From positions 2,902,244 to 2,966,243 of the forward strand of contig OZ242187.1 of the NCBI GenBank assembly GCA_965205465.1: a DNA stretch of 64,000 nt, read 5' to 3'. The position numbers and the translations under genes are program-made. Origin of the DNA: Candidatus Aldehydirespiratoraceae bacterium (GTDB lineage Bacteria > Actinomycetota > Acidimicrobiia > Acidimicrobiales > Aldehydirespiratoraceae). Position 1 is the first letter of the stretch. Each line of letters begins with the position of its first letter. The notes beneath the pieces were generated by a model that saw only the letters and a list, made by a program, of their open reading frames with translations, was not told the origin of the DNA and searched no databases. This document shows, piece after piece, positions 43,091 to 62,365 of the stretch.

Positions 43091-44437
43091 TCGGTTGATC
43101 ACGAGGTTTCTCTCATGGACCGAGGAGCTATTGACTTCCCTGCGATGTTGCTTGGTATCAGCCGACTCCTGCAAACGGACGAATGGGTCCTCGGCCATTT
43201 TCGCAACCTCTATCGAGAAATACTCGTCGACGAGGGCCAGGACCTGACAGAAGTCCAAGCGAAGCTTCTGCGACAGCTCGCGGGCGACAGCGTCGGTCTC
43301 TTTGTCGTGGCGGACGACAAGCAGTCAATACGGGGATTCGCTGGCGGTGCTTTCGAGAATGCCAAGAAGCTCGTTCCTCGGGCGGCGAACGTTCCGCTCA
43401 CTCTTCGCCACAACTTTCGCTGTGCAAAGAAAATCTTGTGCGCGGCCGAATCCGTATTGCGGTCGCTGCCCGAAGATCAGTGCGAGGTGTACTCCCCAGA
43501 GAACATGCCGCCAGGGAAGGTCAGCACCATCGCGATGCGATCTCCTGAGACTGAGGCCGAATACGTCGCCTCGTGGGCATGCCGACTCATTGAACGTGGG
43601 CTAGACGGCGAAACGACTTCTGAGGGCGAGGACACTTCAGTCACTCCCGAGGACATCGCCATACTTGGAAGAACGAGATGGACTCTTGCCCCGCTGGTAG
43701 ACTCGTTGCAGGCTCGAGGCCTTGAACTGACCGTTCAAACAGACGCGGGAGTGTTCCTGAAGGAAGCGGAAGCCCGTCTGTTCGTCGATTGTCTTGCCTT
43801 CGCTCTGAACAACAATGATGCGCCTGCTGCACGTCGTGCGCTCGAGGAACTTCGGGAACTGATGCCTCAGCAGCGCTGCGACGATCCTCTGCAGGCGTTG
43901 AAGAACGCCGACGACGAGTCCTTGAGGGCCTTGGGGGATCTAGTCGCGTGCTCTGTGAATGGGCGAAGCGATTTTGCGATGGCGATGGATGCGCTGTCCG
44001 ACCACGGACAGGCGCACGGCTGGCAGGACGGAGCCCAGACCCTCAGCGATGAATGGAAGGACTACCGATCAAGGATGTCGGTGCAGGACCGATCCCCCAA
44101 AGGCTTCCTGGTGCATCTTGCGAGGACGCAGCGCACCCGCCCCACCGACCCGGGCGTACGGCTGTTGACCTTTGATCGTGCCAAGGGACTGGAATTCAAG
44201 GCCGTGGCACTGACCGGCGTCCGCGACGGACTGCTGCCGCACTACCGGGCTGATTCGGGGCAGGAGCGGGACGAAGACCGTCGCAGGCTCTACGTAGCCA
44301 TGACCCGGGCGTCTCGGGAATTGCTGATGTCATGGCCAGAGACCACCTACGACCGCTACGGCCGATCCCATGCGCAGACCCCCTCCCCCTTCCTGGTCGA
44401 AGCGGGACTCGCGACCACCGCATCCTCATCTCACTGA
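43082..44437 (+). pseudogene. UvrD/Rep-family helicase lacking its N-terminal (Walker A) region
   Basis: Homology starts inside domain 1A/1B (..AIDFPAMLL..FRNLYREILVDEGQDLTEVQ..). It continues to motif VI (LYVAMTRASRELLMSW). No GxGKT segment is present upstream. Confidence 0.6.
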
Positions 44438-47055: not shown

Positions 47056-49080
47056 TCAGATAGGGTTCAGAATTTCCGCTACTCGAAACTTCAGTTTCTT
47101 GCCAGGCGAGGATGTAGGTATTGGCTTGATGCGCAGTTCTCGCTCGGGATTTAGGGTTTCAAGCCTGACGTGGTACGTTATCAGCAATGTATTGAGGATC
47201 ATCTGCAAGTCCGCATAGTGCCGTCCGAGACATGCATGTGTTCCTAATCCGAAACGCACATACGCCCCCCGCGCTTGATGCTCTGAACGGTCAGGCAGGT
47301 AACGATCAATATCGAAGTCAAGCGGACTCTTATACAAGTCTTCATCGTAGTGAGGTGCCCCTTGACAGGTCATCAGGAGTGTTTTGGCTGGAATCTCAAA
47401 ACCTGCGATGGTGCAATCGTTCATCACTGTCCTGAGCTGAATCGGAAAGGTCGGATACAAGCGTGCCGCTTCCATACAGACGCGCTGCGTAACCTCAAAA
47501 CGATCGGCAGTAAAATTCTCGGCGCATAGTTCAGCACCATCTCCAAATACTGTCTCAGCTTCTTTGTACACTTTCTCACGCAGGTCGGGGCGTTGATTCA
47601 GGCAGTACATCACAAAACCGAGTCCAGAACCAAGGTAAATGGCCGCTGCCATTGAGAAGACGAACCAGAAAGTAATGTCAGTTTCCGGCAAGAACTGCGG
47701 ATCTTTCTGGTGCAATGCCAGAACAGCGTCGGCGATGTCGCCGGGTTGCCCGCGGCGCTGAGCCGGTGTGTGTGACTCTAGAACGGACTGTCGTAGTTCT
47801 TCCACGCGCTTGCGATAACGCTTCATTCTCGGTGTCCGTAACATGAAGTGCGGTAACATCCCTTGCACTTCTGTAGCCAATGCACGATGCTCAAAGTCAA
47901 TCAGTTCTCGGGCGTAGTGGCTGCAATCAACATTGATGAGCAGTCGTGAGGATTGACTGGCAATCATGTCCTCGAGTGTCTGCGTGGCGCGAAACACGCT
48001 CCCCTCGGTCCACTCCTTCAAGGATTGTCGGCACAGGTGGACAGCCTCGGGCAGTCGCTCTCGGAACGCAGGACCGGAGTACGCGGCCTGCATTGCGCGC
48101 CGCATCTTGAAGTGATCAGCGCCGTCCATGCCAGGAATGCTGTTGCCAGCACCGACCGCTCGTTCGAGACCCTGAACGTAGTCTTTTGAGCGAAGGTAGT
48201 AGCGCCCATAGGTGTTCACCCATTGATTTACTTCGGTCCCTATGGCGACGACAACGGGTGACTTGTGGATTTTGAACGGCATAGTCAGAATGGGGCCATG
48301 TTGTCGAGAAATTTCGAGCATTCCCTTCGGGATATTGCCTGACCGCAGGTCTCGCTGCCGCAGGAGATCAATATAGCGCAGCTTGTCCATTTGCTGGCGC
48401 GGTCGTGTGCGACGAAGTTTCGGTCGTCCGACGGAATCCACGATCGCCTGGGCTACAGTGCGACCGATGAGATCAAGATTGGCTAAGAACTCAATTCGCT
48501 CGTGCCATTCTTCGTAATCTTCCGCCGACAGCAATGTCTCGAAGCCCTTGATCGAGTGAAGCAATGACACAAGAATGGCATCGCGCGGGGATGGAATAGT
48601 GTCGTTCATAATGACACCAATGATTCGGGACTTGCACTCCTGAACCATCGCACGAGATTTGCCTGGATAGTGGCCCGAACGGGCCACATCACGCGAGAGC
48701 ATCCAGAATCCGCCGTTGAGATATTCAAGTATGCCCCGCTCGACCAGACGATTGAGCATGTTCGACACGACCAGCTCTGAATGTACTGCATTTCGCTCAA
48801 TCCAATATTGTGCATCTTTATCTTCTGAAGACTCAGCGATCTCTGATAGAATTGAGTCAATGGTTTCATCACCTACGGGATCGTCGTTGATAATATACAA
48901 CGTTGCCGGATCTGTATCTATTCGTCCGTCCAGTGCTAGATCTGCAATGACAGCACCAATAGTAACGCAAGAAAGCGGCCAGCCCGGCGCCTTTTCCAAA
49001 TAGCCCGTCTGCTCGTTGAGCATCAACATTATCAGTTCTTCGGTGAGAAAGAGCTTCTCAAACTGCTGGGGCGAATTCAT
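47056..49080 (-). CDS. GPP34 (GOLPH3/VPS74-like) domain fused to cytochrome P450
   Basis: The N-terminus LFLTEELIMLMLNEQTGYLEKAPGWPLSCVTIGAVIADLALDGRIDTD is a GPP34 signature. The C-terminal half has EAAR (ExxR) and the haem loop FGLGTHACLGRHYA. The gene is visibly A+T-richer than its flanks. Confidence 0.8.
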   Translation of the reverse strand: MNSPQQFEKLFLTEELIMLMLNEQTGYLEKAPGWPLSCVTIGAVIADLALDGRIDTDPATLYIINDDPVGDETIDSILSEIAESSEDKDAQYWIERNAVHSELVVSNMLNRLVERGILEYLNGGFWMLSRDVARSGHYPGKSRAMVQECKSRIIGVIMNDTIPSPRDAILVSLLHSIKGFETLLSAEDYEEWHERIEFLANLDLIGRTVAQAIVDSVGRPKLRRTRPRQQMDKLRYIDLLRQRDLRSGNIPKGMLEISRQHGPILTMPFKIHKSPVVVAIGTEVNQWVNTYGRYYLRSKDYVQGLERAVGAGNSIPGMDGADHFKMRRAMQAAYSGPAFRERLPEAVHLCRQSLKEWTEGSVFRATQTLEDMIASQSSRLLINVDCSHYARELIDFEHRALATEVQGMLPHFMLRTPRMKRYRKRVEELRQSVLESHTPAQRRGQPGDIADAVLALHQKDPQFLPETDITFWFVFSMAAAIYLGSGLGFVMYCLNQRPDLREKVYKEAETVFGDGAELCAENFTADRFEVTQRVCMEAARLYPTFPIQLRTVMNDCTIAGFEIPAKTLLMTCQGAPHYDEDLYKSPLDFDIDRYLPDRSEHQARGAYVRFGLGTHACLGRHYADLQMILNTLLITYHVRLETLNPERELRIKPIPTSSPGKKLKFRVAEILNPI

Positions 49081-50396: not shown

Positions 50397-53300
50397 CTAG
50401 GTGGGGGGCTGCCAGCGGTGGGCGATTATCTTGTCTCGTTCGGCGGGGTCGGTGATGGAGACAGTGGAGGTGGGGGTGCGGTGCCAGAAGATTTCCTGGT
50501 CACCTTTGCGTTCCTGGATGGGATGGCCGGATGGTTCGATACTGATGCGGGCCAGTTGGTTGCCGTCTACGGTGTGAAACTCCCAGTCGATGAGGTCAAG
50601 AACGGCGTCACCAAGACGGGAGCGGATGAGGTTCTCCAAGTGTTGGCCCCATAGGTCCTGGTCACCCCGCTCGCCGCGTTTGGTGAACGTGGCGTAGTCG
50701 TCTTCCAGACCGTGGACGGAGCCGTCGTCGGCCACACCGATGAGCAGGGTGCCACCGAATTTCGAGTTGGTGAAACCGGCGATGGTCTTGATGGCGGCGT
50801 CCTCGGTCACGCCGCCTTTGCGCTGTGCTTTGATGTCCCAGCGCAGCGTGGATTTGTATTCCAGGTGGAGCGTCTCGCGGTCGGGTCCGATCAGGTCGCC
50901 GATGGGGCAGGTTCGTTGGCGAGCAACGGTCGCGCGCTTCTGCACATCGGGGGCGAACACGGCGATGAGATCGGCTTGCAATTCGCTGTTGTCCAGATAG
51001 CTGAACACCAGTTTGTCGTTGCGGTCGAGGCGTGACAGCAGTGCGTCTTGGAACCGCGCGGGGAACACATGGTCGCGGAACGTGGCTTCGTCGTTGTTGG
51101 TTGCCTGATTCTGGATCTCTATATCGGAGATCAGATCTGCTGCGGCGGCTTGGAACACGAGTCGGTCATCTTCGGTCCAGTCCGTGCCGAAGCGTTCGTT
51201 GATGCGGGCGATGATCTTCGAAAGGTGTTCGGCTTCGGGATCGGCGAGTGGACCTGTGCCGGAGTAGATGGTGATTACCTCGGCTTCTCCGCCCGGAAGT
51301 TCGATCGAGCCCTCGAAGGTCAGGTCGTGTCGCAGGTGTGTCAGTTCCACTTCGGAACCCAGGTTGATGCGGTCGGTGCCTGTGCGGTCACGGATCAGTG
51401 CGGCCAAGGCTCGACAGAAGCGGTAGTCGCGCTCAAGCTCCGCGTTTCGGAACTGCACCACGAGCGACAGGAAGCTGTAGACACGCACAAACCGGCCCAA
51501 AGCGTCGCGAAATGCGTCTTGGTCTTCTTCGGTCAGCGCATTGAAACGGTCAACCGCGGGTTGCATGGCTGCGTCGATCTGGGCGTGGGTGCCTTCGCTC
51601 ACCAACAGGGTGGAGGCCCGTTCCATCTCGCCTTGGTCGAGCACGTCGAAGCGGTCGAGTTCGTGACGGGTGTCGAACAGCAGGTTGGGATCGGTGGGCG
51701 GGGCGACGGTCTTGCCGTAGTAAACGGCGAATGCTTCTTGAATCTCGTCGGCTTCGTTCACGAAATCAACGACGAACGTGCGAGTCTTTGCGGGGTGGAT
51801 CCGGTTGAGCCTTGAGAGGGTCTGAACTGCGGCCAATCCGGTGAGGGTCTTGTCGACGTACATGGCGGCGAGCTTGGGCTGGTCGAAACCGGTCTGGAAC
51901 TTCTCGGCGACCACCATGATCTGCCATTCGTCGGTGTCGAAGCGTTGAGCGGTCTGCGATTCTCCGAAGCCGTTGGCTTTGGTCTCGGTGAGTCCGTCAA
52001 CCTCGCCTGAGAACGCTACGAGCACTCCGAGGTCGTAGCCGAGGTTGTTGGCATGGTTCCGCAGCGCTTCCCACATCCGTACGGCGTGGGGCCGTGACGA
52101 GCACACCACCATCGCTTTGGCTCTGCCTCCGACCTGGCGGGCGATCTTGGTGCGGAAGTGCTCGACGATGATCTCGGCTTTCTGCGCCAGATTGTCGGGG
52201 TGAAGGGTCACGAATCTGGCGAGCGCGCTGCGGGCTTTGCTTGTTTCGTATGCCGGATCGTCGAGGATCGATTTTTCGAGGTGGAAGTATTGGTTGTAGG
52301 TGAGATAACCGGCCAGCACATCCATGATGAAGGCTTCTTCGATGGCTTGGCGCATCGGGTATTGGTGGAACGGCTTGTGTTTGCCGTCTTTGACCTCGCC
52401 GAACATCTCAAGGGTGCGGCCTTTGGGTGTGGCGGTGAACGCGAAGAAGGACAGGTTGGGCTGAGGACCCCGCGCTGTCACGGCTTCTGCGAGCAGTGTT
52501 TCGGCGTCGGTCGGTTCGTCTTCGCTGTTCGCCTCAACCTCCGGCTCGGCAGAACCCAGGGCACGACGCAGCTCAGCGGCGGCCTGACCGGTCTGCGAGG
52601 AGTGGGCTTCGTCGACGATGACCGCATAGTTGTGTTCAGGTACCTGCTCGATCTTGTCGAGGATGTAGGGGAACTTCTGCAGGGTCGTGACGATGATCCG
52701 GGCCTGCTCACCGATCAGGGCTTCGGCCAACTGCGCCGATGACTCGTCGATGCGCTGCACGACCCCGGTGGCGTGCTCGAACTTGTTGATGGTGTCTTGA
52801 AGTTGCCGGTCGAGCACGATCCGGTCGGTGATGACCACCACCTTGTCGAACACATTGGTATCGGTCTGGTTGTGCAGCGATGAAAGCCGGTGGGCCAACC
52901 AGGCGATCGAATTGGACTTGCCCGACCCTGCTGAGTGTTGAACCAGGTAGTTGCGGCCCGCTCCGTTTTCTTTGGCGTCCGCTTCGAGTTGGCACACGGC
53001 ATCCCATTGATGGAACCGCGGGAAGATCACTTCTGGTCTGGCCCGTGAGCCTTTTGATGGTTTCACCACATGTATGAACCGACCGAGGATGTCCATCCAG
53101 GCGTCGCGGCTCCAAACCTGTTGCCACAGATACGAGGTTCGGTGGCCGTCGGGGTTTGGCGGGTTGCCCGCGCCGAGTTGGTGCCCCCGGTTGAATGGCA
53201 GGAACCGGGTACGGGTGCCGGCGAGGTGGGTGGTCATCGCCACAGAGGATGGATCGACTGCGAAGTGCACCATGCCGGTCCGGTTCAGGGTCCGGTTGCG

Positions 53301-53855
53301 GGGCGACCGGTCGTGTCGGTATTGGGCGATGGCGTTCTCAACGGTCTGGCCTGTGTAGGGGTTCTTGAGTTCGGCGGTGGCCACCGGTATGCCGTTGACG
53401 AACAGGGCAAGGTCGACTGTCTGGTTGCTGGAGGGATCGAACGGTAGCTGCCGGGTCACCGTCAACACGTTTGCGTCGTAGCGTTCGGCCAGCTCTGGCG
53501 TCAGCCCGTGCGCCGGTTTGAAGTAGGCGAGCTTGATTGTGACGTTGCGGTCCACGACACCGTTCCGCAGCACGTCCACGGTGCCGCGCTTGTTGAGTTC
53601 GAAGGCGAGTCGCCGCACGAACCCGGACTGCGCTCTGTTGGGATCGCCTCCGTATGCGGAGTCCACCAGCCGCGCCCATTGCTCGCCCTGGGTCGCGCCG
53701 ATGAACACGAACAGATCGGCCGTGTCCACGCCCGCCTCAGCGTCGAAGTCCCTCGGATGGTCCCCAACGTTTCCGATCTTCACCTGCCGGTAGCCGCCGT
53801 GTTCAACCAGCCAGGAGGCGATGTCTTCTTCAAACGCCGCTTCAGTTACAGACAT
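50397..53855 (-). CDS. hsdR: Type I restriction enzyme R subunit with C-terminal AlbA_2/Schlafen-like domain
   Basis: SF2 motifs QHSAGSGKSNS, TDRIVLDRQL, VIVDEAHSSQ and FAFTATP. The N-terminus begins EAAFEEDIASWL. GGAGG lies 8 nt before ATG 53855. The extra C-terminal 155 aa begin LEYKSTLRWD...AGFTNSKFGGTLLIGVADDGSVHGLEDDY. Confidence 0.9.
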   Translation of the reverse strand: MSVTEAAFEEDIASWLVEHGGYRQVKIGNVGDHPRDFDAEAGVDTADLFVFIGATQGEQWARLVDSAYGGDPNRAQSGFVRRLAFELNKRGTVDVLRNGVVDRNVTIKLAYFKPAHGLTPELAERYDANVLTVTRQLPFDPSSNQTVDLALFVNGIPVATAELKNPYTGQTVENAIAQYRHDRSPRNRTLNRTGMVHFAVDPSSVAMTTHLAGTRTRFLPFNRGHQLGAGNPPNPDGHRTSYLWQQVWSRDAWMDILGRFIHVVKPSKGSRARPEVIFPRFHQWDAVCQLEADAKENGAGRNYLVQHSAGSGKSNSIAWLAHRLSSLHNQTDTNVFDKVVVITDRIVLDRQLQDTINKFEHATGVVQRIDESSAQLAEALIGEQARIIVTTLQKFPYILDKIEQVPEHNYAVIVDEAHSSQTGQAAAELRRALGSAEPEVEANSEDEPTDAETLLAEAVTARGPQPNLSFFAFTATPKGRTLEMFGEVKDGKHKPFHQYPMRQAIEEAFIMDVLAGYLTYNQYFHLEKSILDDPAYETSKARSALARFVTLHPDNLAQKAEIIVEHFRTKIARQVGGRAKAMVVCSSRPHAVRMWEALRNHANNLGYDLGVLVAFSGEVDGLTETKANGFGESQTAQRFDTDEWQIMVVAEKFQTGFDQPKLAAMYVDKTLTGLAAVQTLSRLNRIHPAKTRTFVVDFVNEADEIQEAFAVYYGKTVAPPTDPNLLFDTRHELDRFDVLDQGEMERASTLLVSEGTHAQIDAAMQPAVDRFNALTEEDQDAFRDALGRFVRVYSFLSLVVQFRNAELERDYRFCRALAALIRDRTGTDRINLGSEVELTHLRHDLTFEGSIELPGGEAEVITIYSGTGPLADPEAEHLSKIIARINERFGTDWTEDDRLVFQAAAADLISDIEIQNQATNNDEATFRDHVFPARFQDALLSRLDRNDKLVFSYLDNSELQADLIAVFAPDVQKRATVARQRTCPIGDLIGPDRETLHLEYKSTLRWDIKAQRKGGVTEDAAIKTIAGFTNSKFGGTLLIGVADDGSVHGLEDDYATFTKRGERGDQDLWGQHLENLIRSRLGDAVLDLIDWEFHTVDGNQLARISIEPSGHPIQERKGDQEIFWHRTPTSTVSITDPAERDKIIAHRWQPPT

Positions 53856-53978
53856 CACAGTCACCTCCCCCTCGGCCCGAACGCCCCACACACCCTAGAA
53901 GCAAGCGAACTGAACCGTGAAGCCGACCCCCGTTGGAACATCGAGCATCAGCGGCGTCCGTGACCATAGAGTCCTGGC

Positions 53979-54428
53979 GTGACCGCTATCTCCGAGAGGC
54001 CCGCGATTGTTTCGATCGGCTACGAGCAACGAGATGTCAGCGAACTGATCGGCCTCTTGAAGGCCAACGGGGTCGTGACGCTCGTTGATGTGCGCCTCAA
54101 TCCGGTCTCAAGAAAGAAGGGATTTTCGAAGAAGGCTCTGGCTGCTGCGATGGGCGATGCAGGAATCGAGTATCGCCACGAGCGCGAATTGGGAAACCCC
54201 AAGGAGAACCGTGATCCGTTCAGGCGAGGTCTGGAGTCGGCGCGGCAGAGGTACCGGAGTCACCTTCAAAACGATGGGTGCTCTGCCTACGAACGAGTCA
54301 TCGACCTAGCGAGCACCTCACGGATCGCGCTCCTCTGCTACGAGCGGGACCATGACCAGTGTCACCGATCCTGCATCCTCGAAACCGCGCAAACCGACCA
54401 CCCAACAATCAGCGTCCTCCGACTCTGA
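53979..54428 (+). CDS. DUF488-family protein
   Basis: The sequence IVSIGYEQRDVSELIGLLKANGVVTLVDVRLNPVSRKKGFSKKAL....GIEYRHERELGNP...CYERDHDQCHR is the typical DUF488 pattern. Confidence 0.8.
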   Translation: MTAISERPAIVSIGYEQRDVSELIGLLKANGVVTLVDVRLNPVSRKKGFSKKALAAAMGDAGIEYRHERELGNPKENRDPFRRGLESARQRYRSHLQNDGCSAYERVIDLASTSRIALLCYERDHDQCHRSCILETAQTDHPTISVLRL

Positions 54429-54464
54429 GATGGTAATCATTCCACGGAACCGGCTACCGGCAGA

Positions 54465-54596
54465 GTGACTGCTCGGCGGCTTTGGTATTGAGCTTTTCGG
54501 CCGTGGTGGCGGGGGAACATTACGTGGAGCGGATCCGCGTTTCGAAAGCATTGTGTTGTCACTTTCTTTGAACAGTTGGGATTGGCAGCCAGCGTG
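54465..54596. repeat. Direct repeat copy A (partner at 56215..56333)
   Basis: The core of about 85 nt (GTGACTGCTCGGCGGCTTTGGTATTGAGC...CGCGTTTCGA) matches copy B with 10 substitutions. Similarity decays with indels after that. Confidence 0.85.
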
Positions 54597-54692
54597 AGTT
54601 ACGAAGACCCGCGTCCAGAAGGCCAAAGTAGAGGTTGTAGCCATCAACGTAAGCGATCACCCGTTCGATTCTCATCGATCAATTGAACTTTC

Positions 54693-54722
54693 TTGACGCA
54701 TTGTCATACGGGTTGGTATTGT
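54693..54722 (+). promoter_or_regulatory. Sigma-70-like promoter candidate
   Basis: TTGACG (54693-98), an 18-nt spacer, then TATTGT (54717-22). Confidence 0.35.
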
Positions 54723-54728
54723 GGTCTG

Positions 54729-54838
54729 TAACCCCCCCAGGGTGAGTAACCCTGGGTCGACGGCTCCGGCTTGCAGCCGGGGCTGTCTAGTTTTTCGGCC
54801 TTGCGCGGCCATGCTTAGCCAGGCCGAAGGCCTTTTGT
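54729..54838 (+). ncRNA. Candidate structured small RNA (three hairpins plus U-tract)
   Basis: Hairpin 1 is CCCAGGG-7nt-CCCTGGG (54736-56). Hairpin 2 is GGCTCCGGC-TTGCA-GCCGGGGCT (54762-84). Hairpin 3 is TTCGGCCT..AGGCCGAA, or AGGCC-GAA-GGCCT, followed by TTTTGTT (54794-54838). No credible ORF. Confidence 0.3.
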
Positions 54839-55007
54839 TCGTTGATCGCACAGCTATCACCGTCATCCACATAACTCCTCCGCCGGATTCGCTACCTACC
54901 GCTCGCCGAGCACTGTGCATTCCGTCCTTGTCGGTAGGTTGCTCACGCTATCGGTTGCCTGGTGAATGTGAGCTTGACCCTCGGGAAGCCGATGTGGCGA
55001 GCGGACC

Positions 55008-56036
55008 CTAGTCCTGGGAGCGTTGGATTATCTGACGTCTCGCCTCCCCGCGGTGGATCGCGTGTGCGATGTGGTCAGAGGTAACGCACTTGTCGAGGCG
55101 GCGCACCATTACTCGGATGGCATCGAGGGCCACCGCCTCCACTTCAGCCGCGCTGAATTCTTCCATTTTCTGTGCGGCTCCAGTCAGATCGAAGTCGCAC
55201 CGCACCGATCTCAGCTTCAACGCCAGAATCTCGGATCGGGCGGTCTGGTCGGGAGACTCGAACTCGACTATCTCGTCGAATCTTCGCCAGACTGCGGAGT
55301 CCAGCAGCGTGGGGTGATTCGAGGTGGCTATGAAGAGCGAGTCGCTTCGGTGATCATCCACGACCTGCAGCATCGCGGCGACTACCCGACGCAACTCGCC
55401 ATGATCGGCCCGATCGCCTCGTTCCCGCCCGAGCATGTCGAACTCATCGAAAATCAAGACCCAGGATCCCACATCGAGAAAACTGAAGATCTGTTCAAGG
55501 TGCCGTGCTGTTTCACCCAAGTATGACGAGACGATTGTGGCCAACCGAACACGAGCGATGGGTAGCCCGAGTTGCGCCGCGGTGGCCTCGGCGCTGGCTG
55601 ACTTACCGCTTCCTGGGGGGCCTACCAAGAGTACGCTCGACCGTGGTGAGACTCCGTGTGCCCGCATTGCTGATCGTTGACGGAACTCTTCGACCAGCGA
55701 CTCGAACACGCTGACCACCGAGTCGGGCAGAACCAAGTCATGGAACGACACGCGTGGTTCCTCCAGCGAGATCAGTGGGAGGTCGTCGCGAGTCTTGGGC
55801 AGGGGTCGTAGCGAAGAAACCTGGGGAGGTCTCCGCCGGTGGCCGGGTTCTTCGAGGATCGCTTCAAGCTGCTCGGCGACGAGATCGTGCCGTTTGCGCC
55901 TCTCGTCATCGATCAATTCTTTCGCAGCGCGCTGAAACCCAGCATCGTCGCCCCGCTGATGACTGCGGAGCAGCGCTTTCACCAAGTCACTGCGTGCCAC
56001 GCCATGAACATACTCGCGCACTGTGCCACCGACCAC
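55008..56036 (-). CDS. Classical AAA+ ATPase with helical N-terminal region (orphan)
   Basis: Walker A LLVGPPGSGKSASAE, Walker B VLIFDEFDML, sensor-1 IATSN, arginine finger region SAVWRRFDE. GTG start. Confidence 0.85.
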   Translation of the reverse strand: MVGGTVREYVHGVARSDLVKALLRSHQRGDDAGFQRAAKELIDDERRKRHDLVAEQLEAILEEPGHRRRPPQVSSLRPLPKTRDDLPLISLEEPRVSFHDLVLPDSVVSVFESLVEEFRQRSAMRAHGVSPRSSVLLVGPPGSGKSASAEATAAQLGLPIARVRLATIVSSYLGETARHLEQIFSFLDVGSWVLIFDEFDMLGRERGDRADHGELRRVVAAMLQVVDDHRSDSLFIATSNHPTLLDSAVWRRFDEIVEFESPDQTARSEILALKLRSVRCDFDLTGAAQKMEEFSAAEVEAVALDAIRVMVRRLDKCVTSDHIAHAIHRGEARRQIIQRSQD

Positions 56037-56214
56037 GCGGAGGGTTGACTACATGGTCTGCCGGTTCTTCATCGTTCCGAGGACCGCAAACGCATCGCAG
56101 AACTAAACGGAATGGAACCCATGAATTCCAGCCCGCATCGTTCCCGTTCGAAAGACCCGGCGAAACTCTCGCTCGAACCGACAGCTAGGGGTTCCCGGCG
56201 AGACGAGTGTTTTT

Positions 56215-56333
56215 GTGACTGCTTGGAGGCTTTGGTATTGAGGTTTTTGGGCGTGGTGGCGGGGGGACATTCCGCGGAGCGGCTCCGCGTTTCGAGCGCT
56301 TTGTCCCGCGAGTTTGCCGGTCAGCCATGCGTG
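56215..56333. repeat. Direct repeat copy B (partner at 54465..54596)
   Basis: Same orientation as copy A, 1750 bp away. Contains the palindrome CGCGGAGC-G-GCTCCGCG (56273-89). Confidence 0.85.
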
Positions 56334-56727
56334 GGAGACTATCAGATACCTCGTCCTGCCGTCGAACCAGCCGTCTCCTACGGGTGTGCCGAGGCGACCG
56401 GTGAGGCCTCGAAGGCCGGTCCATCAGTCCAACCTCGCCCGCCGCAGTTTGAGCTGAAGCGGTGGTTGCGCCGGTAGCACGTGAAATCAGAGAGCAGAGC
56501 GACGCGAGAGTGAAGGCTGTTCTTCGAGGGTTCTCGCCTAAAGCGGAAGTTCGCGGCCCATTCCGGGCAGACTCTCTACGGATTTGAGTTCAGGCGGGGA
56601 GGGTTTGATGACTGCGAGCAAGAAGAAGCAGAAGAAGAAACAGGAACGGCGGCGGTAGCGCGACGAAGCTGAACTGGCCGGGGCGAGGGTTGCGTACGAG
56701 TCTGGGGTTCACTGGCTAGATGCCAAC

Positions 56728-57159
56728 GTGAGGGCCTTGGAAGCGCTCCGGACACGGTCGCTCGCACTGGTCTCGATTGTTCTCATTGCGGCCACTGTCG
56801 TGGCAAACCTTGCTCCAGATGCAGTCGAGCAGGATGCTCTAGGATTCCGGGGTTGGCTGGGAGCCGTGACATTCGCTTTTGGCACGGCAGCGGTATTCGT
56901 GACGAGCGCGTGCGTGTCGTGGCCTGCCGTGTTCACCGCAGAGCTTGGCCCAATGAAGATCATCAAGGCGCATGTAGATCTTCACCTGACGTCGCCCTCC
57001 GCAAAGCTATACAAAGCGCTCGCGAAAGACCTGGACGGTTACGCCAAGAAGTCGCGAGAGACGCTCCGTAGGCGCGCCCAGTTCTATACGGTGGGCATTG
57101 TCGCGGCAGGCGTGGCAGTGGCTGGGATCGCGCTATTCTGGGCCGATGCCACCTTCTGA
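56728..57159 (+). CDS. Small three-TM hypothetical protein
   Basis: 143 aa from GTG (frame open from 56659). Predicted helices are SLALVSIVLIAATVVANLA, GWLGAVTFAFGTAAVFVTSACVSW and FYTVGIVAAGVAVAGIALFWA, with an amphipathic linker. Confidence 0.5.
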   Translation: MRALEALRTRSLALVSIVLIAATVVANLAPDAVEQDALGFRGWLGAVTFAFGTAAVFVTSACVSWPAVFTAELGPMKIIKAHVDLHLTSPSAKLYKALAKDLDGYAKKSRETLRRRAQFYTVGIVAAGVAVAGIALFWADATF

Positions 57160-57635
57160 AGCTGAATCCACACGACTGTCCCGCCGGAACCGCAACGGCA
57201 ACGGCACAGGCGAAGACGAAACGCGCGGACGCCGTAGGCCAGCCTCAAAGAAGGCGACTTCACGGAGCCAGGTCGAAGGTGTGGGCGAGGCCGAGGTGCG
57301 TAGCCGCAATCCTGACGGCCCAGTACACACCAGAGAAGCAACCGACGGCTGAACCTAGGAGCACCGCTGTTCAAACTTGCACGGCGGTTCCCGGTACCTC
57401 GGAGCGATAGCTGCGGCTTCTGCGCCCTGAGTATCTGGATGGTGAGGTAGATGGACGGGACTGCCGGTTCTTTTTGAATCCAACGTGTGGTCACGGCCCA
57501 GTCGCGTCTGCCGTCGATCCAACCCTTGGTGGACAGATGAGCTAGGTGTCGGTTCGCGTGAGGTTCGACCTAGTCGGTGGTGCGGTTGTCGCAACGCAAC
57601 TGAATCGCTGCCAGGAACTCTTCGTCGCTATCGCT

Positions 57636-57902
57636 TCATCGATTGCGGTAGACGTCGCGGCGATGGGCGACCCTCACGACTTGTACGACTAGGCGCCTGT
57701 CGATCACCTCATAGATGATCCGGTAGTCTCCGACGCGCACCCGGTAAACGGAGTCCTCCCCGACCAGAGCGACGCATCGAGGTGGCCGCGGCTCGGTGGC
57801 CAAGAGGTCTATCGCAGTTCGAACCCTGATCTGATCGTTACGCGGCAGCCGAGCGATCGACCGGACCGCGCGCCTGGCGATCTCAACTTGGTACCGCTTC
57901 AC
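57636..57902 (-). CDS. RelE/ParE-family type II toxin
   Basis: 88 aa. The pattern ..LPRNDQIRVRTAIDLLATEP..YRVRVGDYRIIYEVIDRRLVVQVVRVAHRRDVY is typical. Confidence 0.8.
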   Translation of the reverse strand: MKRYQVEIARRAVRSIARLPRNDQIRVRTAIDLLATEPRPPRCVALVGEDSVYRVRVGDYRIIYEVIDRRLVVQVVRVAHRRDVYRNR

Positions 57903-58150
57903 TAAAGGCCCAGCGCGGCCTTGACATCATCCCAAGGAACGTAGTCATCGTCGATCCGCGCGGCGGCGAGTTCACGGCGGTCTTCGACATCGTCAGCGTG
58001 GTCGACGAGCCGGTCGAATGAATCGATGTCGAGGATCACCGCTACCCGTCGGCCGCGCCGAGTCACCATGACCGGCTCGGCTGACCTGCGTGCCTCCTCG
58101 AGCACTTCGGCCAGTCGGCTCCGTGCTTCGCTCACCGCTACCTCGTTCAT
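57902..58150 (-). CDS. Phd/YefM-family antitoxin
   Basis: Start at the internal ATG gives MNEVAVSEARSRLAEVLEEARRSAEPVMVTRRGRRVAVILDIDSF... Its TAG stop overlaps the toxin GTG by 1 nt. Confidence 0.75.
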   Translation of the reverse strand: MNEVAVSEARSRLAEVLEEARRSAEPVMVTRRGRRVAVILDIDSFDRLVDHADDVEDRRELAAARIDDDYVPWDDVKAALGL

Positions 58151-58368
58151 GTACGAATCGTACATATCAACCGCCGACGGATCAACTCTGGGTTCCATCG
58201 GCGAACTGTCTGGTGTCATCGAACCGGTCCAGCACACGACGCGTGCCACGCCGCCGTTTCCATGTCATTCGGTGGTGCCACCAGCCTCGGCTACGCCCTG
58301 GATGCTACTGGCCATCGAGGGGCCGTGAGCGGCGACATCGTGCCCGCTTAGTAGCCGGTTCGTGACTG

Positions 58369-59241: not shown

Positions 59242-59378
59242 GAGATTAGTCCGTTGCGGCGGAGCACTCGTCGCGCCGCTGATGACTGCGGAGAAGCGCC
59301 CTTCACCAAGTCACTGCGTGCCACGTCATGAACATACTCGCACGGTGTGTCACCCACCACGCGGAGGGTGAACCACAT
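59238..59378 (-). pseudogene. Duplicated, frameshifted 5' end of the AAA+ ATPase gene (acts as a 46-codon upstream ORF)
   Basis: Positions 59268..59382 match 55945..56058 at roughly 88% by eye. The peptide ..VVGDTPCEYVHDVARSDLVKG.. compares with the AAA+ N-terminus MVGGTVREYVHGVARSDLVKA... A 1-nt indel then changes the frame. Confidence 0.6.
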
Positions 59379-59474
59379 GGTCGCAGCAGACCCAGCGGCG
59401 CGCCGCCGGCCTCTAGTCCTGCACCCTCGACCCGAGTAGGTCGTTGGACAAGGGCCTCAGGGTACGATCGCGGA

Positions 59475-60311
59475 ATGGCCAAAGATACGATCCCGCTGTT
59501 CACTGCCGATGTTCTGCGCGGCATCACCGATGTGTTGGGAGCGACCGACGACGGACTTACGGGGTCGGAGATCGCGCACAATTTGGCCCAGGCTCGCGTC
59601 CTCGACGTCAATCGAGGAATGACGAAGCGTCACAGACTGTTCAACGCCCTAGCCGAGCGGCAAAACAAGGATCGGGTCGGCAACTGCGTAGTGGCGTTCA
59701 TGACCGAATCCATGTCACCGGTGCACTACCGCAACGATCCCGCTGGTTTCTCTCGGCGGCAGGCCGACCTCAACGAGGTGTTGGTATTCGCTGGGTATCG
59801 CATCAACGACGAAGGCAAAGTAGAACGGCCCCGTAGCGGTAAGGCGTCGACCCTTGACGAGGCGGCGGAGCGCGCGAACACAATCCGCGTCGAACTGCGT
59901 CGTCGAGACACGCATCCAGACCTGTTGCGCTACTGCACCGTCGAACTATTGATGAAGAACAACTTCCACGCTCTATTGGAAGCGTCAAAGAGCATGCCTG
60001 ATCGAATCCGGTTGATGACGGGCGAGACCAGCGATGGAGCGGAGCTGATCCAGGCCACGGTTACGTCTTCGAGCGGACCGCTGGTGGCTATCAACGCTGG
60101 AGCAACAGAGACTGATCGGAAAGAGCAGTCAGGGTTCGCCAATCTGATCATCGGCCTCATCGGTCTTTACCGCAACCCGACGGCTCACGATCCCAAACTC
60201 CATCGGACCGTAACCGACGAAGAACTTCTTGAGGCTCTGACGACGATGTCGATGGTGCACCGCCGACTTGACGACGCATCCTTGGACACGACAGTGAATG
60301 CGGACCGTTAG
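59475..60311 (+). CDS. TIGR02391 (Hypoth_Ymh) family protein with N-terminal extension
   Basis: The C-terminal half reads HPDLLRYCTVELLMKNNFHALLEASKSMPDRIR..TSDGAELIQ...EQSGFANLIIGLIGLYRNPTAHDPK...EALTTMSMVHRRLDDA. Start taken at ATG 59475. Confidence 0.75.
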   Translation: MAKDTIPLFTADVLRGITDVLGATDDGLTGSEIAHNLAQARVLDVNRGMTKRHRLFNALAERQNKDRVGNCVVAFMTESMSPVHYRNDPAGFSRRQADLNEVLVFAGYRINDEGKVERPRSGKASTLDEAAERANTIRVELRRRDTHPDLLRYCTVELLMKNNFHALLEASKSMPDRIRLMTGETSDGAELIQATVTSSSGPLVAINAGATETDRKEQSGFANLIIGLIGLYRNPTAHDPKLHRTVTDEELLEALTTMSMVHRRLDDASLDTTVNADR

Positions 60312-60383
60312 CCTGTCTCGGACAGTGGACGAAGCCTAGACTTGAACTGAACTCTCGTCGGGCGTGCATAGAAGGGAGCGATC

Positions 60384-61859
60384 GTGAATCAAGCGGATCT
60401 CCGACTCGTCGTTGACAATCTCGGGCCGATCCGGCATGCCGATGTCGCGCTTCGACCTCTCACCGTGTTGATCGGACGAAACAACACAGGCAAGACCTAC
60501 TTGGCCCAGGCGCTTTATGCCGCGCACAAAGCGATTGACCCTTTTCCGCGGCGCAGACCGGAGACTCTAGCTGTCAGCGAGTTTGAAGCCTTAAGGGCGG
60601 TACTTGTACCTCTCATGGCATCAGAACACACCGAGCCATCTCTCCGGGTCAATGATCTGCCTCCGGAATTGCAGAAAAAGATGACAGAAGCCGTTCGTAG
60701 CGCGCTCAAAGACACCGGCGCGAGGCTTGAGCAACGGCTATCCGCCTATTTCGGAGTATCCGATCTCGTCGATATCACGAGGTGGGGTGCGAACAACATC
60801 ATCGTGAGATTATTGAATGACAAAGACGATGCACTTTTGTTTGATAGCAAAGGCAACGCATCGGTAGACCCGTCCGCGGTGCTGTCGATGTTTATTGATG
60901 ATGAGGAGGCTCTTGGATTTCCACCCTTAGCGAGGTTGCTCACCCATAATGGCGACGACCAAGACAACGAGATCTTTCGACAGGAACTATCTTGGATCCT
61001 TGTTTCAAAGGTTTGGCAAGGATACATAAGGCAAGCACATCTTGGCGGGTTGGCCCACTATCTTCCTGCTGGCCGGTCGGGTTTGCTGCACGCTTGGACT
61101 GATGTCGTGAAGTTACGTCTGCAGCTAGAGAGAGATCGCTACGGTCTGGTCAGACCGGATTCGGATCTGGGTGGTGTTGCGCTTGATTTCATTTCGTCAT
61201 TGGCAGATGTGCTCGGAAGAGGTCCTCGGTACGGTTACGGGAGGCAACTCTCGCTGTTTCATGATGAAGGATCACGCAAGAATCCTGAATCACTTGCCCT
61301 CTTGCAGGAACTAATGGACGGCAAGATCTTGGCTGGATCGGAAACTGATATGGTTCCCACTCTCGAATATGAGCAAGACGGCCATCAGTTGCCAATCCGC
61401 CGAGCTTCGTCGATGGTTGCCGACTTAGCACCGCTGGCTATGTGGATTGATAGGCTCATCCGTCCCGGGGATTTGCTCGTTATCGATGAACCTGAATCGC
61501 ACCTGCACCCCGAAGCCATCCGTCTGGTTGCTCGTGTTCTGGTGCGACTTGTCAATGAGAACGTGCGGGTCGTGTGCGCCACTCACAGTTCTGTTTTGTT
61601 GCACGAACTCACGAACTGCATCCTGAGGAGCCAGCTGAGCAAATCAGAGCGAGATTCGCAAGATGAGTTCACCCAAGGGGATATCCTGGCTCTTGAAGAC
61701 ATCGCAGTTCACCGTTTCCGTCGCTCCAGTCCTGCTGATCCCGTGGAGGTGGAACAGGTCAATATTGAGCCTGATTGGGGTATACCCGAGGACGAATATG
61801 TGGAGGTGGCTGGTGACTTGTCAGACGAGACTGCACGCCTCATTGATTTGCTCGCGTGA
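60384..61859 (+). CDS. ABC-type (SMC/RecF-like, AAA_15/21-class) ATPase
   Basis: Walker A VLIGRNNTGKTY, a roughly 200-aa helical insert, signature-like LPAGRSGLLH, Walker B LLVIDEPESHLHP, H-loop VVCATHS. GAAGGGA SD sequence before the GTG start. Confidence 0.85.
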   Translation: MNQADLRLVVDNLGPIRHADVALRPLTVLIGRNNTGKTYLAQALYAAHKAIDPFPRRRPETLAVSEFEALRAVLVPLMASEHTEPSLRVNDLPPELQKKMTEAVRSALKDTGARLEQRLSAYFGVSDLVDITRWGANNIIVRLLNDKDDALLFDSKGNASVDPSAVLSMFIDDEEALGFPPLARLLTHNGDDQDNEIFRQELSWILVSKVWQGYIRQAHLGGLAHYLPAGRSGLLHAWTDVVKLRLQLERDRYGLVRPDSDLGGVALDFISSLADVLGRGPRYGYGRQLSLFHDEGSRKNPESLALLQELMDGKILAGSETDMVPTLEYEQDGHQLPIRRASSMVADLAPLAMWIDRLIRPGDLLVIDEPESHLHPEAIRLVARVLVRLVNENVRVVCATHSSVLLHELTNCILRSQLSKSERDSQDEFTQGDILALEDIAVHRFRRSSPADPVEVEQVNIEPDWGIPEDEYVEVAGDLSDETARLIDLLA

Positions 61860-62365
61860 TCAATACTAAGACAATCAGCAACCAGCATGCACGGTGTGGT
61901 TGCATCATGATCCGCGTGACAGGACCTTCATCGTCTCCAACCGCCGTGGAGCACTCGGACTGTAGCCTACAAGTAAACGGATTACTTCTAGCCATAGACT
62001 GCAATGTGTGTAAAGCTTTTCACGAAAGACGGAAACGGCCCGATCTCTTGGTCCTTCGAGAAGTGAATCACAAGGCACAGTGGCTCGTGATCGAGATTAA
62101 GTCGACTGCGAGAATGAAAGCGATCCAGCAATTGAACGCCGGTTTGAATTCCCTTGCGAATAGCTCTCTATTTTTGGAATTTGCGCACGACCGACCGCGC
62201 GCTGTTCTAGCTACCAAACGACAGCGGACCGCTGATTTAGGATGGCTGCGCAAACCATTGGACACGGCATGGGGCGCTGTCTTCGTGCAACCGGTTAAGT
62301 GGCGCTTCGCGTTTCAGGTCGGAGTGAGGGTGTCGAGCAGCGTCCAGTTGGGTTTGCCTGCGTAG
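61856..62365 (+). CDS. Small PD-(D/E)xK-motif protein, 3' end replaced by an ISL3 insertion
   Basis: GTGA overlap with the ATPase stop. Core reads RPDLLVLREVNHKAQWLVIEIKSTARMKAIQQL (PD...ExK...Q). From 62301 the ORF reads into the IS. The native end (..VQPVKCGDAEAI*) resumes at 63723-63745. Confidence 0.65.
   Translation: MINTKTISNQHARCGCIMIRVTGPSSSPTAVEHSDCSLQVNGLLLAIDCNVCKAFHERRKRPDLLVLREVNHKAQWLVIEIKSTARMKAIQQLNAGLNSLANSSLFLEFAHDRPRAVLATKRQRTADLGWLRKPLDTAWGAVFVQPVKWRFAFQVGVRVSSSVQLGLPA
62293..62300. repeat. ISL3 target-site duplication, left copy (GGTTAAGT)
   Basis: An identical 8-mer occurs at 63715-63722, immediately outside the inverted repeats. Confidence 0.85.

Follow-up and report, generated by a model that had tools for sequence, protein, structure and literature searches.

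A lone ietA gene in an Acidimicrobiales defense island, probably the antitoxin half of an IetAS system without its protease partner

What does the gene of a classical AAA+ ATPase do in a defense island when no partner gene stands beside it? The question is raised by a 64-kb stretch of DNA from Candidatus Aldehydirespiratoraceae bacterium (contig OZ242187.1, positions 2,902,244 to 2,966,243), here termed the window, in which such a gene is located in a defense island next to a type I restriction gene, as had been noted earlier from the sequence. This original prediction had regarded the ATPase gene as part of a possible stand-alone cassette, composed of the gene itself, a convergent structured RNA, and a divergently encoded protein with three transmembrane (TM) segments, and bracketed by direct repeats. 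It had also compared the protein with IetA, the ATPase of the two-protein system IetAS, which Gao et al. are said to have described in 2020 as an anti-phage system. Comparison of the window with related loci (designated by L-numbers such as L001, L006, and L035) points to another answer: with a probability of roughly 80%, the lone gene is the antitoxin half of IetA/IetS whose partner has been lost, i.e., an orphan of a known kind. A lone classical AAA+ gene in a defense island can be resolved in this way by neighborhood comparison, and the locus should accordingly be counted among degraded IetAS systems rather than be taken for a new one. Previously undescribed is the antisense RNA of a HEC-09 clade found in the same island, and noteworthy are the high frequency and the apparent maintenance of orphan ietA in this clade.

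The ATPase and its absent partner

The gene and its conserved motifs are located as follows:

55008-56036, reverse strand: ietA, intact gene for a classical AAA+ ATPase of the IetA family, 342 amino acids from the GTG codon at 56036, recognized by profile match, motifs, and predicted fold
55599-55622, reverse strand: Walker A motif of ietA
55512-55526, reverse strand: pore loop of ietA
55437-55448, reverse strand: Walker B motif of ietA
55314-55325, reverse strand: sensor-1 of ietA
55275-55289, reverse strand: arginine fingers of ietA

The reading frame is intact, the probable true start being an internal GTG codon at 56000, which gives a protein of 330 residues; most homologues have this length and begin at this position with VARSDL. 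The AAA domain of Pfam covers residues 135-260 of the 342-residue protein (E 1.3e-27) and is accompanied by a weak match to the AAA lid. The protein contains GPPGSGKS at residues 139-146, a YLG pore loop at 171-175, DEFD at 197-200, TSNH with the sensor-1 asparagine N240, and WRRFD at 250-254. All AAA+ motifs are unchanged across 42 aligned homologues with identities down to 55%, which upholds the description of the protein as a classical AAA+ ATPase. The PADLOC profile PDLC04232 for IetA matches with an E value of 2.2e-78, residues 14-336 being aligned to positions 2-322 of 330, and three additional IetA models of PADLOC match with E values between 7e-74 and 5e-49. The IetA match extends over the full length and is much stronger than the match of any other family to this protein. 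Judged by these profiles, the protein is an orthologue of IetA, the ATPase half of the canonical IetAS system. The earlier comparison with IetA had named the right family but understated the relationship: the protein is not merely similar to IetA, it is an orthologue whose canonical partner ietS is missing. In common with IetA of IetAS, it has a length of about 330 residues, a short helical N-domain, and a single classical AAA+ module, and its orthologues are encoded upstream of an IetS protease of family S8.

The predicted structure agrees with this assignment in most respects. In an AlphaFold2 model calculated with the alignment of 42 homologues (mean predicted local distance difference test score 81), residues 3-62 form four helices and residues 63-87 a disordered linker, after which the AAA+ module begins, so that the helical N-terminal region, predicted to comprise about 130 residues, is reduced to about 60. 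There is one AAA module and no fused effector was found in the protein, as predicted. When the model was compared with the PDB by Foldseek, the proteasomal ATPases Rpt/PAN, FtsH, and p97 were the top matches (E approximately 4e-16; TM-score 0.6-0.66 when normalized to the query and up to 0.85 when normalized to the target), corresponding to an AAA+ unfoldase fold. In a sequence search of the PDB with phmmer, residues 88-315 matched VCP-like ATPases and p97 (E 1e-40), and no PDB sequence matched the N-terminal 62 residues. The protein shares with Rpt/PAN, FtsH, and p97/Cdc48 the AAA+ fold and lid, the YLG pore loop, and two arginine fingers, whereas it differs from them in having a single AAA module and in lacking an OB ring, a protease domain, and the N-domain of these families. 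Since Walker A and Walker B, the pore loop, and the arginine fingers are intact, IetA of the window is probably still made and would assemble as a hexameric ATPase that threads its substrates.

More than 4,000 relatives of the ATPase were retrieved from a search of 5.8 billion proteins, the closest of them from metagenome-assembled genomes of Acidimicrobiales. By a scan of species-representative genomes, the window was likewise assigned to Acidimicrobiales / Candidatus Aldehydirespiratoraceae. Some database names for these homologues ("SpoVK/Ycf46/Vps4 family AAA+-type ATPase") would suit a housekeeping ATPase (CbbX-like, FtsH-associated, or SpoVK-like) that is present in the island by chance, and the original prediction had named housekeeping operons as the setting that would speak against a role in defense. 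This explanation is extremely improbable in view of the strength and length of the IetA match and of the genomic context, since all 12 neighborhoods of close homologues that were inspected are defense or toxin-antitoxin islands, in which type I restriction-modification (R-M), CBASS, HEPN, AAA_15/21, ParE/Phd, and DUF488 genes occur; most of the close homologues are accompanied by ietS.

The partner gene is readily recognized in the relatives. In 16 of 26 distinct related loci with a full-length ietA, a gene for a protein of about 743 residues with Y4kK_N and Peptidase_S8 domains is located 150-180 nucleotides (nt) downstream of ietA on the same strand. This subtilisin-type protease matches the IetS model of PADLOC (E 1.9e-102), and the ietA orthologues paired with it encode proteins with 77-97% identity to IetA of the window. 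No ietS was found in the 64-kb window by tblastn with two IetS proteins, nor was an IetS remnant found there when a hidden Markov model of 16 IetS sequences was applied to all six-frame stop-to-stop open reading frames (ORFs), the best E value being 0.11. A complete IetAS, with ietS adjoining ietA at the same locus, is thus not encoded here. The ATPase gene has no intact co-directional neighbor either, in agreement with the earlier note of a missing co-directional partner, although a remnant of an NYN gene comprising 30 codons is oriented in the same direction 333 nt downstream. As possible partners, the RNA, the TM protein, or nothing had been considered; of these, "nothing" is the right choice and is what an orphaned antitoxin would be expected to have. 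From canonical IetAS, the locus differs by the lack of ietS in 64 kb, by its ietA being a duplicate (ietA2) with an upstream region of its own, by a downstream flank formed by the NYN/HEC-09 remnant, and by its occurrence in an experimentally unstudied clade of Acidimicrobiales.

A gene for a ClpP-like serine protease of the SDH_protease/NfeD type adjoins ietA in two of the related loci, at L007 7614-8837 (downstream of an orphan ietA) and at L002 6971-7630 (upstream of a paired ietA). This proximity could be a coincidence or could indicate an alternative protease partner; as a candidate for such a partner the protease was rejected, because tblastn with the L007 protein finds none in the other loci among L001-L034.

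Origin, frequency, and likely role of orphan ietA

The features that bear on the history of the copy are listed here:

54997-55007, no strand: junction between the ietA stop codon and a foreign NYN upstream region, from blastn breakpoints and an alignment of the window, L001, L013, and L030
56067-56187, no strand: relic homologous to L006 6846-6967; the gene for 295 residues located upstream of ietA in L006 is gone here
59268-59373, reverse strand: 5' stub of a second ietA (ietA1), 106 nt, about 26 codons followed by a frame break, from blastn and translation
L035 4371-5399 and 11541-12552: the two ietA copies of locus L035

Homology to ietA-ietS loci breaks off 6 nt past the ietA stop codon. 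The following 410 nt (54587-54996) recur with 100% identity in L006, in a stretch which is located about 4.9 kb from ietA in that locus and runs into an intact NYN gene for 213 residues. The DNA directly downstream of ietA derives from an unrelated NYN/HEC-09 cassette. Beyond the NYN remnant, the native spacer between NYN and DUF488 genes, which is copy 1 of the direct repeat, is followed by the DUF488 gene. In the other direction, the window is collinear with L035 from 55008 to 58349, i.e., over about 3.4 kb that include ietA, repeat copy 2, the TM gene, and a ParE/Phd pair, with 94% nucleotide identity. L035 holds ietA1 followed by ietS and, at a distance of about 6.4 kb, an intact ietA2, to which ietA in the window is orthologous (ietA2 of L035 was called as 247 residues by the gene caller of the source, and re-translation gives an intact frame of 342 codons). 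Where L035 has a gene for 403 residues, ietS, and ietA1, the window has a gene for 290 residues and the 106-nt stub of ietA1, which is antisense to the mis-called start of a Hypoth_Ymh ORF (59328-60311). These alignments are most simply explained by deletion or replacement of the ietA1-ietS pair, which ietA2 survived. The copy in the window represents a second, stand-alone ietA, a few kb from which a canonical ietA1-ietS was lost with the exception of the stub. In L035, ietA1 and ietA2 are mutual closest relatives on the gene tree, a closeness that suggests gene conversion.

These comparisons also bear on the possibility that the gene is still paired in trans, with an ietS or a complete ietAS outside the window, and serves as a working extra antitoxin or regulator, a role that ietA2 may have in L035. 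Such pairing is conceivable, but we consider it rather less probable than not: intact ietA1-ietS and ietA2 do coexist in L035, and selection has been maintained on orphan copies (see below), whereas ietS is absent from the 64-kb window as well as from the 24 kb spanned by L011 and L032 on chromosome OZ242337.1, and the position of the L035 ietA1-ietS pair is occupied here by the 290-residue gene and the stub. A looser form of coexistence, which would also suit pairing in trans, is seen in L015 and L031 (~1600-2470), where a second, distant ietA-like gene encodes a protein 35-37% identical to IetA of the window and, in L031, stands beside a distant IetS-like fragment.

Orphan ietA genes are common. 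Among the full-length ietA genes with enough flanking sequence, taken from all sources, 16 are paired with ietS and 11 are orphans (window, L001, L007, L011, L012, L013, L014, L017, L019, L021, and ietA2 of L035). Orphans account for 6-7 of 17-18 loci in species-representative genomes and for about 35-40% of related loci. They are polyphyletic and scattered over the gene tree, with roughly at least eight independent origins, and all 11 are full length. Their downstream neighbors are unrelated to each other and include DnaB, an ORC-like ATPase, a nitrilase with a reverse transcriptase, M78/DUF4411, an AAA_15 pair, and HsdR; L012 resembles L006 minus ietS, with a gene for 403 residues 43 nt after ietA. 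Fragments of ietA, derived from either end of the gene (5' or 3'), are likewise frequent in these islands (L001, L013, L027-L030, L032, and the stub in the window), and in none of eight cases has ietS been kept beside a truncated ietA copy.

Selection on the orphans was analyzed by counts of codon changes. On the branch leading to ietA of the window alone, 9 nonsynonymous and 21 synonymous changes were counted, all conservative and none of them in the motifs. By codon parsimony reconstruction on a neighbor-joining tree of 27 sequences, the terminal branches of orphans carry 161 nonsynonymous and 378 synonymous changes in total and those of paired copies 182 and 455 (Fisher p 0.65), some orphan branches bearing up to 50-75 synonymous changes. 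The pairwise ratio of nonsynonymous to synonymous rates (dN/dS) of ietA in the window is 0.12 both to the nearest orphan (L001) and to the nearest paired copy (L006). By these measures, no relaxed constraint on orphan copies is detectable in comparison with paired copies, and ietA of the window presents itself as an orphan antitoxin: a homologue of an antitoxin with no toxin in cis and with an intact frame under purifying selection.

The alternative that orphan ietA genes are inert remnants, which have no selected function, are not yet disabled, and will decay like their neighbors, has to be weighed at this point. It would fit the decaying surroundings, in which an internal deletion has removed most of the NYN gene, a nonsense codon interrupts the TM gene, and ietA1 has been reduced to a stub, as well as the abundance of ietA fragments in related islands. 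It fits less well with 11 full-length orphans of so many separate origins, with a nonsynonymous to synonymous ratio the same as that of the paired copies, and with the unaltered motif residues of the gene in the window, and we therefore regard it as a doubtful explanation, though one to be taken seriously.

The polarity of the system is known from homologues. IetAS was first described as a plasmid-stabilizing toxin-antitoxin pair of the Agrobacterium plasmid pTiC58 (Yamamoto 2009, as cited in PMC13069673), and a plasmid with IetAS carrying a mutated ietA could not be constructed (PMC13069673). In Mycoplasma, deletion of the AAA-ATPase alone is lethal, whereas deletion of the protease or of both genes is viable, and the toxicity of the protease in Escherichia coli is fully neutralized by co-expression of the ATPase (PMC8562856). 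The protease is thus the toxin and the ATPase the antitoxin (PMC8562856; PMC13069673). Since loss of the ATPase alone is lethal and loss of the protease is tolerated, the decay of a module can begin with ietS but not with ietA, which fits the orphans observed here; an orphan ietA that is frequent, recurrent, and constrained is in accord with the published polarity. The pair TA132/133 of Mycoplasma mycoides, an AAA-ATPase antitoxin and a subtilisin-like protease toxin, follows the same two-gene logic as the relatives of the window. The ATPase of this pair does no harm by itself, the toxin can be lost without ill effect, and "a few orphans" are reported from some Mycoplasma strains (PMC8562856). 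The Mycoplasma pairs differ in having no intergenic gap, and they are likened to the gene of the window by description.

In a complete system, IetS would act as a subtilisin-type protease toxin and effector that is restrained or remodeled by IetA. The IetA protein of the window would have no effector output when alone; if active at all, it would neutralize IetS-type proteases in trans, encoded either by another ietAS of the same genome or by a mobile element that enters the cell. Retained antitoxin competence of this kind is the reading which we prefer, by analogy with the characterized homologues. Orphan antitoxins can act as anti-addiction modules of type II toxin-antitoxin systems. The gene of the window resembles them as an antitoxin homologue that is kept without its cognate toxin, under purifying selection and in an often-recombining region, whereas it differs in encoding an ATP-driven AAA+ machine instead of a small DNA-binding protein, and its neutralizing activity in trans is putative. 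In any case, the orphan ietA genes offer natural material for studies on the trans action of IetA and on the surfaces by which IetS is recognized.

Several points weigh against retained antitoxin competence. For this copy it is a prediction from sequence, and the view comprises 64 kb of the genome, beyond which an ietS may lie. The antitoxin role is taken from homologues of Agrobacterium and Mycoplasma and not from this actinobacterial clade. In addition, recent repeated losses of ietS or gene conversion from paired copies could mimic a maintained function in the sequence comparisons. Retained competence, an inert remnant, and an ietS outside the window overlap and are not fully exclusive, and 64 kb do not separate them.

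The NYN/HEC-09 remnant and its antisense RNA

The foreign DNA downstream of ietA comprises the following elements:

54559-54675, reverse strand: remnant of an NYN/HEC-09 RNase gene, the first 30 codons intact (54586-54675), about 520 bp missing after them by internal deletion, and the frame soon closed by a stop codon
54676-54996, reverse strand: NYN/HEC-09 upstream region, 100% identical to L006 13898-14218, which is directly upstream of the intact NYN gene there
54730-54795, forward strand: candidate small RNA, approximately 66 nt long, which is antisense to the 5' untranslated region of the NYN gene and convergent with ietA, from a promoter/terminator scan and covariation
54693-54698 and 54717-54722, forward strand: -35 element TTGACG and -10 element TATTGT of the RNA promoter
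54737-54755, forward strand: first hairpin of the RNA, with the loop UGAGUAA
54759-54787, forward strand: terminator hairpin of the RNA, followed by a U-tract

When the NYN protein of L006 was compared with the window by tblastn, residues 1-30 matched at 100%; nothing else of the protein is left, and a full-length NYN protein with its catalytic aspartates is not encoded in the window. The intact L006 protein matches the HEC-09 model of PADLOC over its full length (E 1.2e-80), and its gene is enclosed by a type I R-M locus, a setting described for such candidates (Payne et al., bioRxiv 10.1101/2024.01.29.577857). In the original test, HEC-09 is reported not to have protected E. coli from any of the phages used (bioRxiv 10.1101/2024.01.29.577857). 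The window differs from that system in that just 30 codons are kept, and the passages of the preprint drawn on here make no mention of an upstream antisense RNA (bioRxiv 10.1101/2024.01.29.577857).

On either strand, the region convergent with ietA has a better predicted fold than shuffled sequence (z approximately -3), and several lines of evidence indicate a genuine RNA. In an alignment of 13 sequences, 97% of the cells are paired and 9 of 19 pairs change on both sides, a result reached by none of 500 shuffles; when the partner columns are slid against each other, the pairing falls to at most 55%. The wobble pairs are G-U on the antisense (forward) strand, which favors this strand as the folded one. 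A search of the whole window against Rfam at gathering thresholds gave no match to the RNA, and at a permissive threshold the region 53.8-57.4 kb yielded just a chance-level match to an S10 leader (E 3.1) at another site.

The distribution of the element was followed in metagenomes and in viral contigs. A scan of metagenomes with a degenerate palindromic 19-mer (about 14 of 33 hits lacked the second hairpin, were judged to be chance matches, and were discarded) placed the two-hairpin unit 43-62 nt upstream of NYN genes whose products share 41-50% identity with that of L006. Altogether, the unit precedes an NYN gene at this distance in at least 18 loci, many of them without ietA. In these metagenomic NYN loci, a TAnnnT -10 element and the U-tract are kept on the antisense strand. 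The scan of viral contigs gave no hits with a single NYN protein and 80 loci with an NYN alignment as seed; the two closest of these 80, L071 and L073, which were located by the NYN protein and not by the motif, are the only ones with the RNA; its elements are arranged there as in the other instances, and each of the two stems contains compensating changes. More distant NYN genes do not have the element, which is thus specific to one NYN clade and not general. Instances were recorded in the window (54693-54796, forward strand), L006 (14100-14218), L041, L044, L059, L067, L070, L071, and L073. The element survives deletion of the NYN gene in the window, in L013/L030, in L038/L039, and in L047/L056. 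A distance of 2.5-5 kb separates the element from ietA in L006 and L012, and in most of the remaining cases ietA is missing from the vicinity.

Judged by covariation and by this distribution, the convergent RNA is real and has to be assigned to the NYN/HEC-09 cassette instead of ietA; the structured RNA of the earlier note has therefore been confirmed as such, but not as a component or partner of the ATPase. The RNA might serve as an antitoxin or in regulation, and it may be a missing component of the HEC-09 candidate system. A protein antitoxin in its place, encoded by an ORF of 82 codons (54672-54920, reverse strand) with an ATGA overlap with the NYN start, was considered and rejected: a 2-nt deletion breaks the frame in L013 and L030, while the nucleotides and the hairpins are conserved.

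The junction between the ietA stop codon and the NYN upstream region is also found in L001, L013, and L030, and this recurrence had suggested IetA and NYN as a new toxin pairing. The pairing was dismissed, as none of the loci compared has an intact ietA and an intact NYN gene adjacent to each other.

The findings on the ATPase and on the RNA can be combined in the proposal that orphan ietA genes are kept by selection as trans-acting antidotes against IetS and that the antisense RNA is a second orphaned antidote, namely of HEC-09. We put this combined proposal forward tentatively and rate its chances as clearly lower than those of the partner loss itself. If true, orphan ietA would represent an anti-addiction or immunity function in about a third of the genomes of this Acidimicrobiales family, and HEC-09 would be an undescribed RNA-controlled, type I-like toxin-antitoxin or defense module.

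TM gene, direct repeats, and island surroundings

The remaining elements of the proposed cassette are:

56608-57159, forward strand: gene for a three-TM protein, 183 codons with a TAG codon at codon 17 (56656-56658), from homologues and translation
54465-54554 (core; whole element about 54429-54599), forward strand: repeat copy 1, native NYN-DUF488 intergenic element
56185-56385 (core 56215-56304), forward strand: repeat copy 2, a diverged copy, 85% identical to L006 14950-15120, also found in L026, L011, and L035

The divergently encoded TM protein had been predicted as an ORF of 143 residues (56728-57159), which does contain three hydrophobic segments but is the tail of a longer gene that was stopped by a CAG to TAG change. 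The family has 39 homologues of 173-183 residues, is confined to relatives of this clade, and has no Pfam or PADLOC match. Of the 34 related ietA loci that were examined, 33 have no homologue and one has, namely L035, which is orthologous to the window; the other two loci of the family that were looked at (L036 and L037) have unrelated gene contexts. Neither this protein nor the RNA is accordingly a plausible partner of the ATPase.

The direct repeats are 90 nt long (54465-54554 and 56215-56304), 87% identical, and the sole two copies in the window. They had been interpreted as the borders of the cassette; the repeat itself is real, but it is an intergenic element of about 100-170 nt which is present in one to three copies at varied junctions in L001, L002, L006, L007, L011, L012, L026, and L035. 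Its conserved core reads GGCTTTGGTAT...GTGGTGGCGGGGGGACATTCCG...CCGCGTTTCGAG. The element may be a recombination joint. Other interpretations were rejected: the covariation term of RNAalifold is just -0.32, which does not indicate a structured RNA; protein identity is below nucleotide identity in either frame, as for non-coding DNA; and a tRNA or transfer-messenger RNA (tmRNA) 3' end serving as attachment site is not available, the sole tRNA of the window being located at 44069-44154 and a tmRNA being absent from it.

With these data, a new stand-alone defense cassette, delimited by the repeats and using the RNA and/or the TM protein in place of the protease effector, can be assessed. All of its elements are within 3 kb, the RNA is truly structured and conserved, and the ietA-NYN junction recurs in three other loci. 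Nevertheless, the elements do not travel together in related genomes, since the RNA follows NYN genes and not ietA, ietA and NYN are nowhere both intact and adjacent, TM homologues are missing from ietA loci other than L035 and occur in other contexts in L036 and L037, the TM gene of the window is interrupted, and the repeat is present at many other positions in related islands. We consider such a cassette very improbable and return to the loss of ietS next to a surviving ietA as the explanation of the locus.

Further genes of the island and its edge are:

50397-53891, reverse strand: HsdR (type I restriction) fused to a C-terminal Schlafen/AlbA_2 domain, 1164 residues, edge of the embedded defense island
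53979-54428, forward strand: DUF488 gene, convergent with ietA, synteny anchor
57636-58249, reverse strand: ParE-Phd/YefM type II toxin-antitoxin pair
59328-62365, forward strand: three adjacent genes, namely Hypoth_Ymh, corresponding to PD-Lambda-3_B (E 9e-71), an AAA_15/AAA_21 ATPase, corresponding to PD-T4-4_A (E 7e-40), and an overlapping gene for 169 residues with no family match

The genes hsdM and hsdS are not present in the window; in related genomes they are located on the far side of the variable island, so that the defense genes are inserted between the separated parts of a type I R-M locus. The distance of the DUF488 gene downstream of ietA varies from 0.6 kb in the window to 3.5 kb in L002 and 6.1 kb in L006. 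The real start of the Hypoth_Ymh gene is probably near residue 50 of the called ORF, and its PADLOC alignment begins at residue 54. The gene for 169 residues also follows the AAA_15/AAA_21 ATPase gene in L001, L008, L011, L026, and L035. The order of these modules relative to ietA varies between genomes. Just outside the island, in a stretch of lower G+C content (52-53%), an unusual fusion protein of 674 residues is encoded (47056-49080, reverse strand), which is composed of an N-terminal GPP34 (Golgi phosphoprotein 3-like) domain and a C-terminal cytochrome P450.

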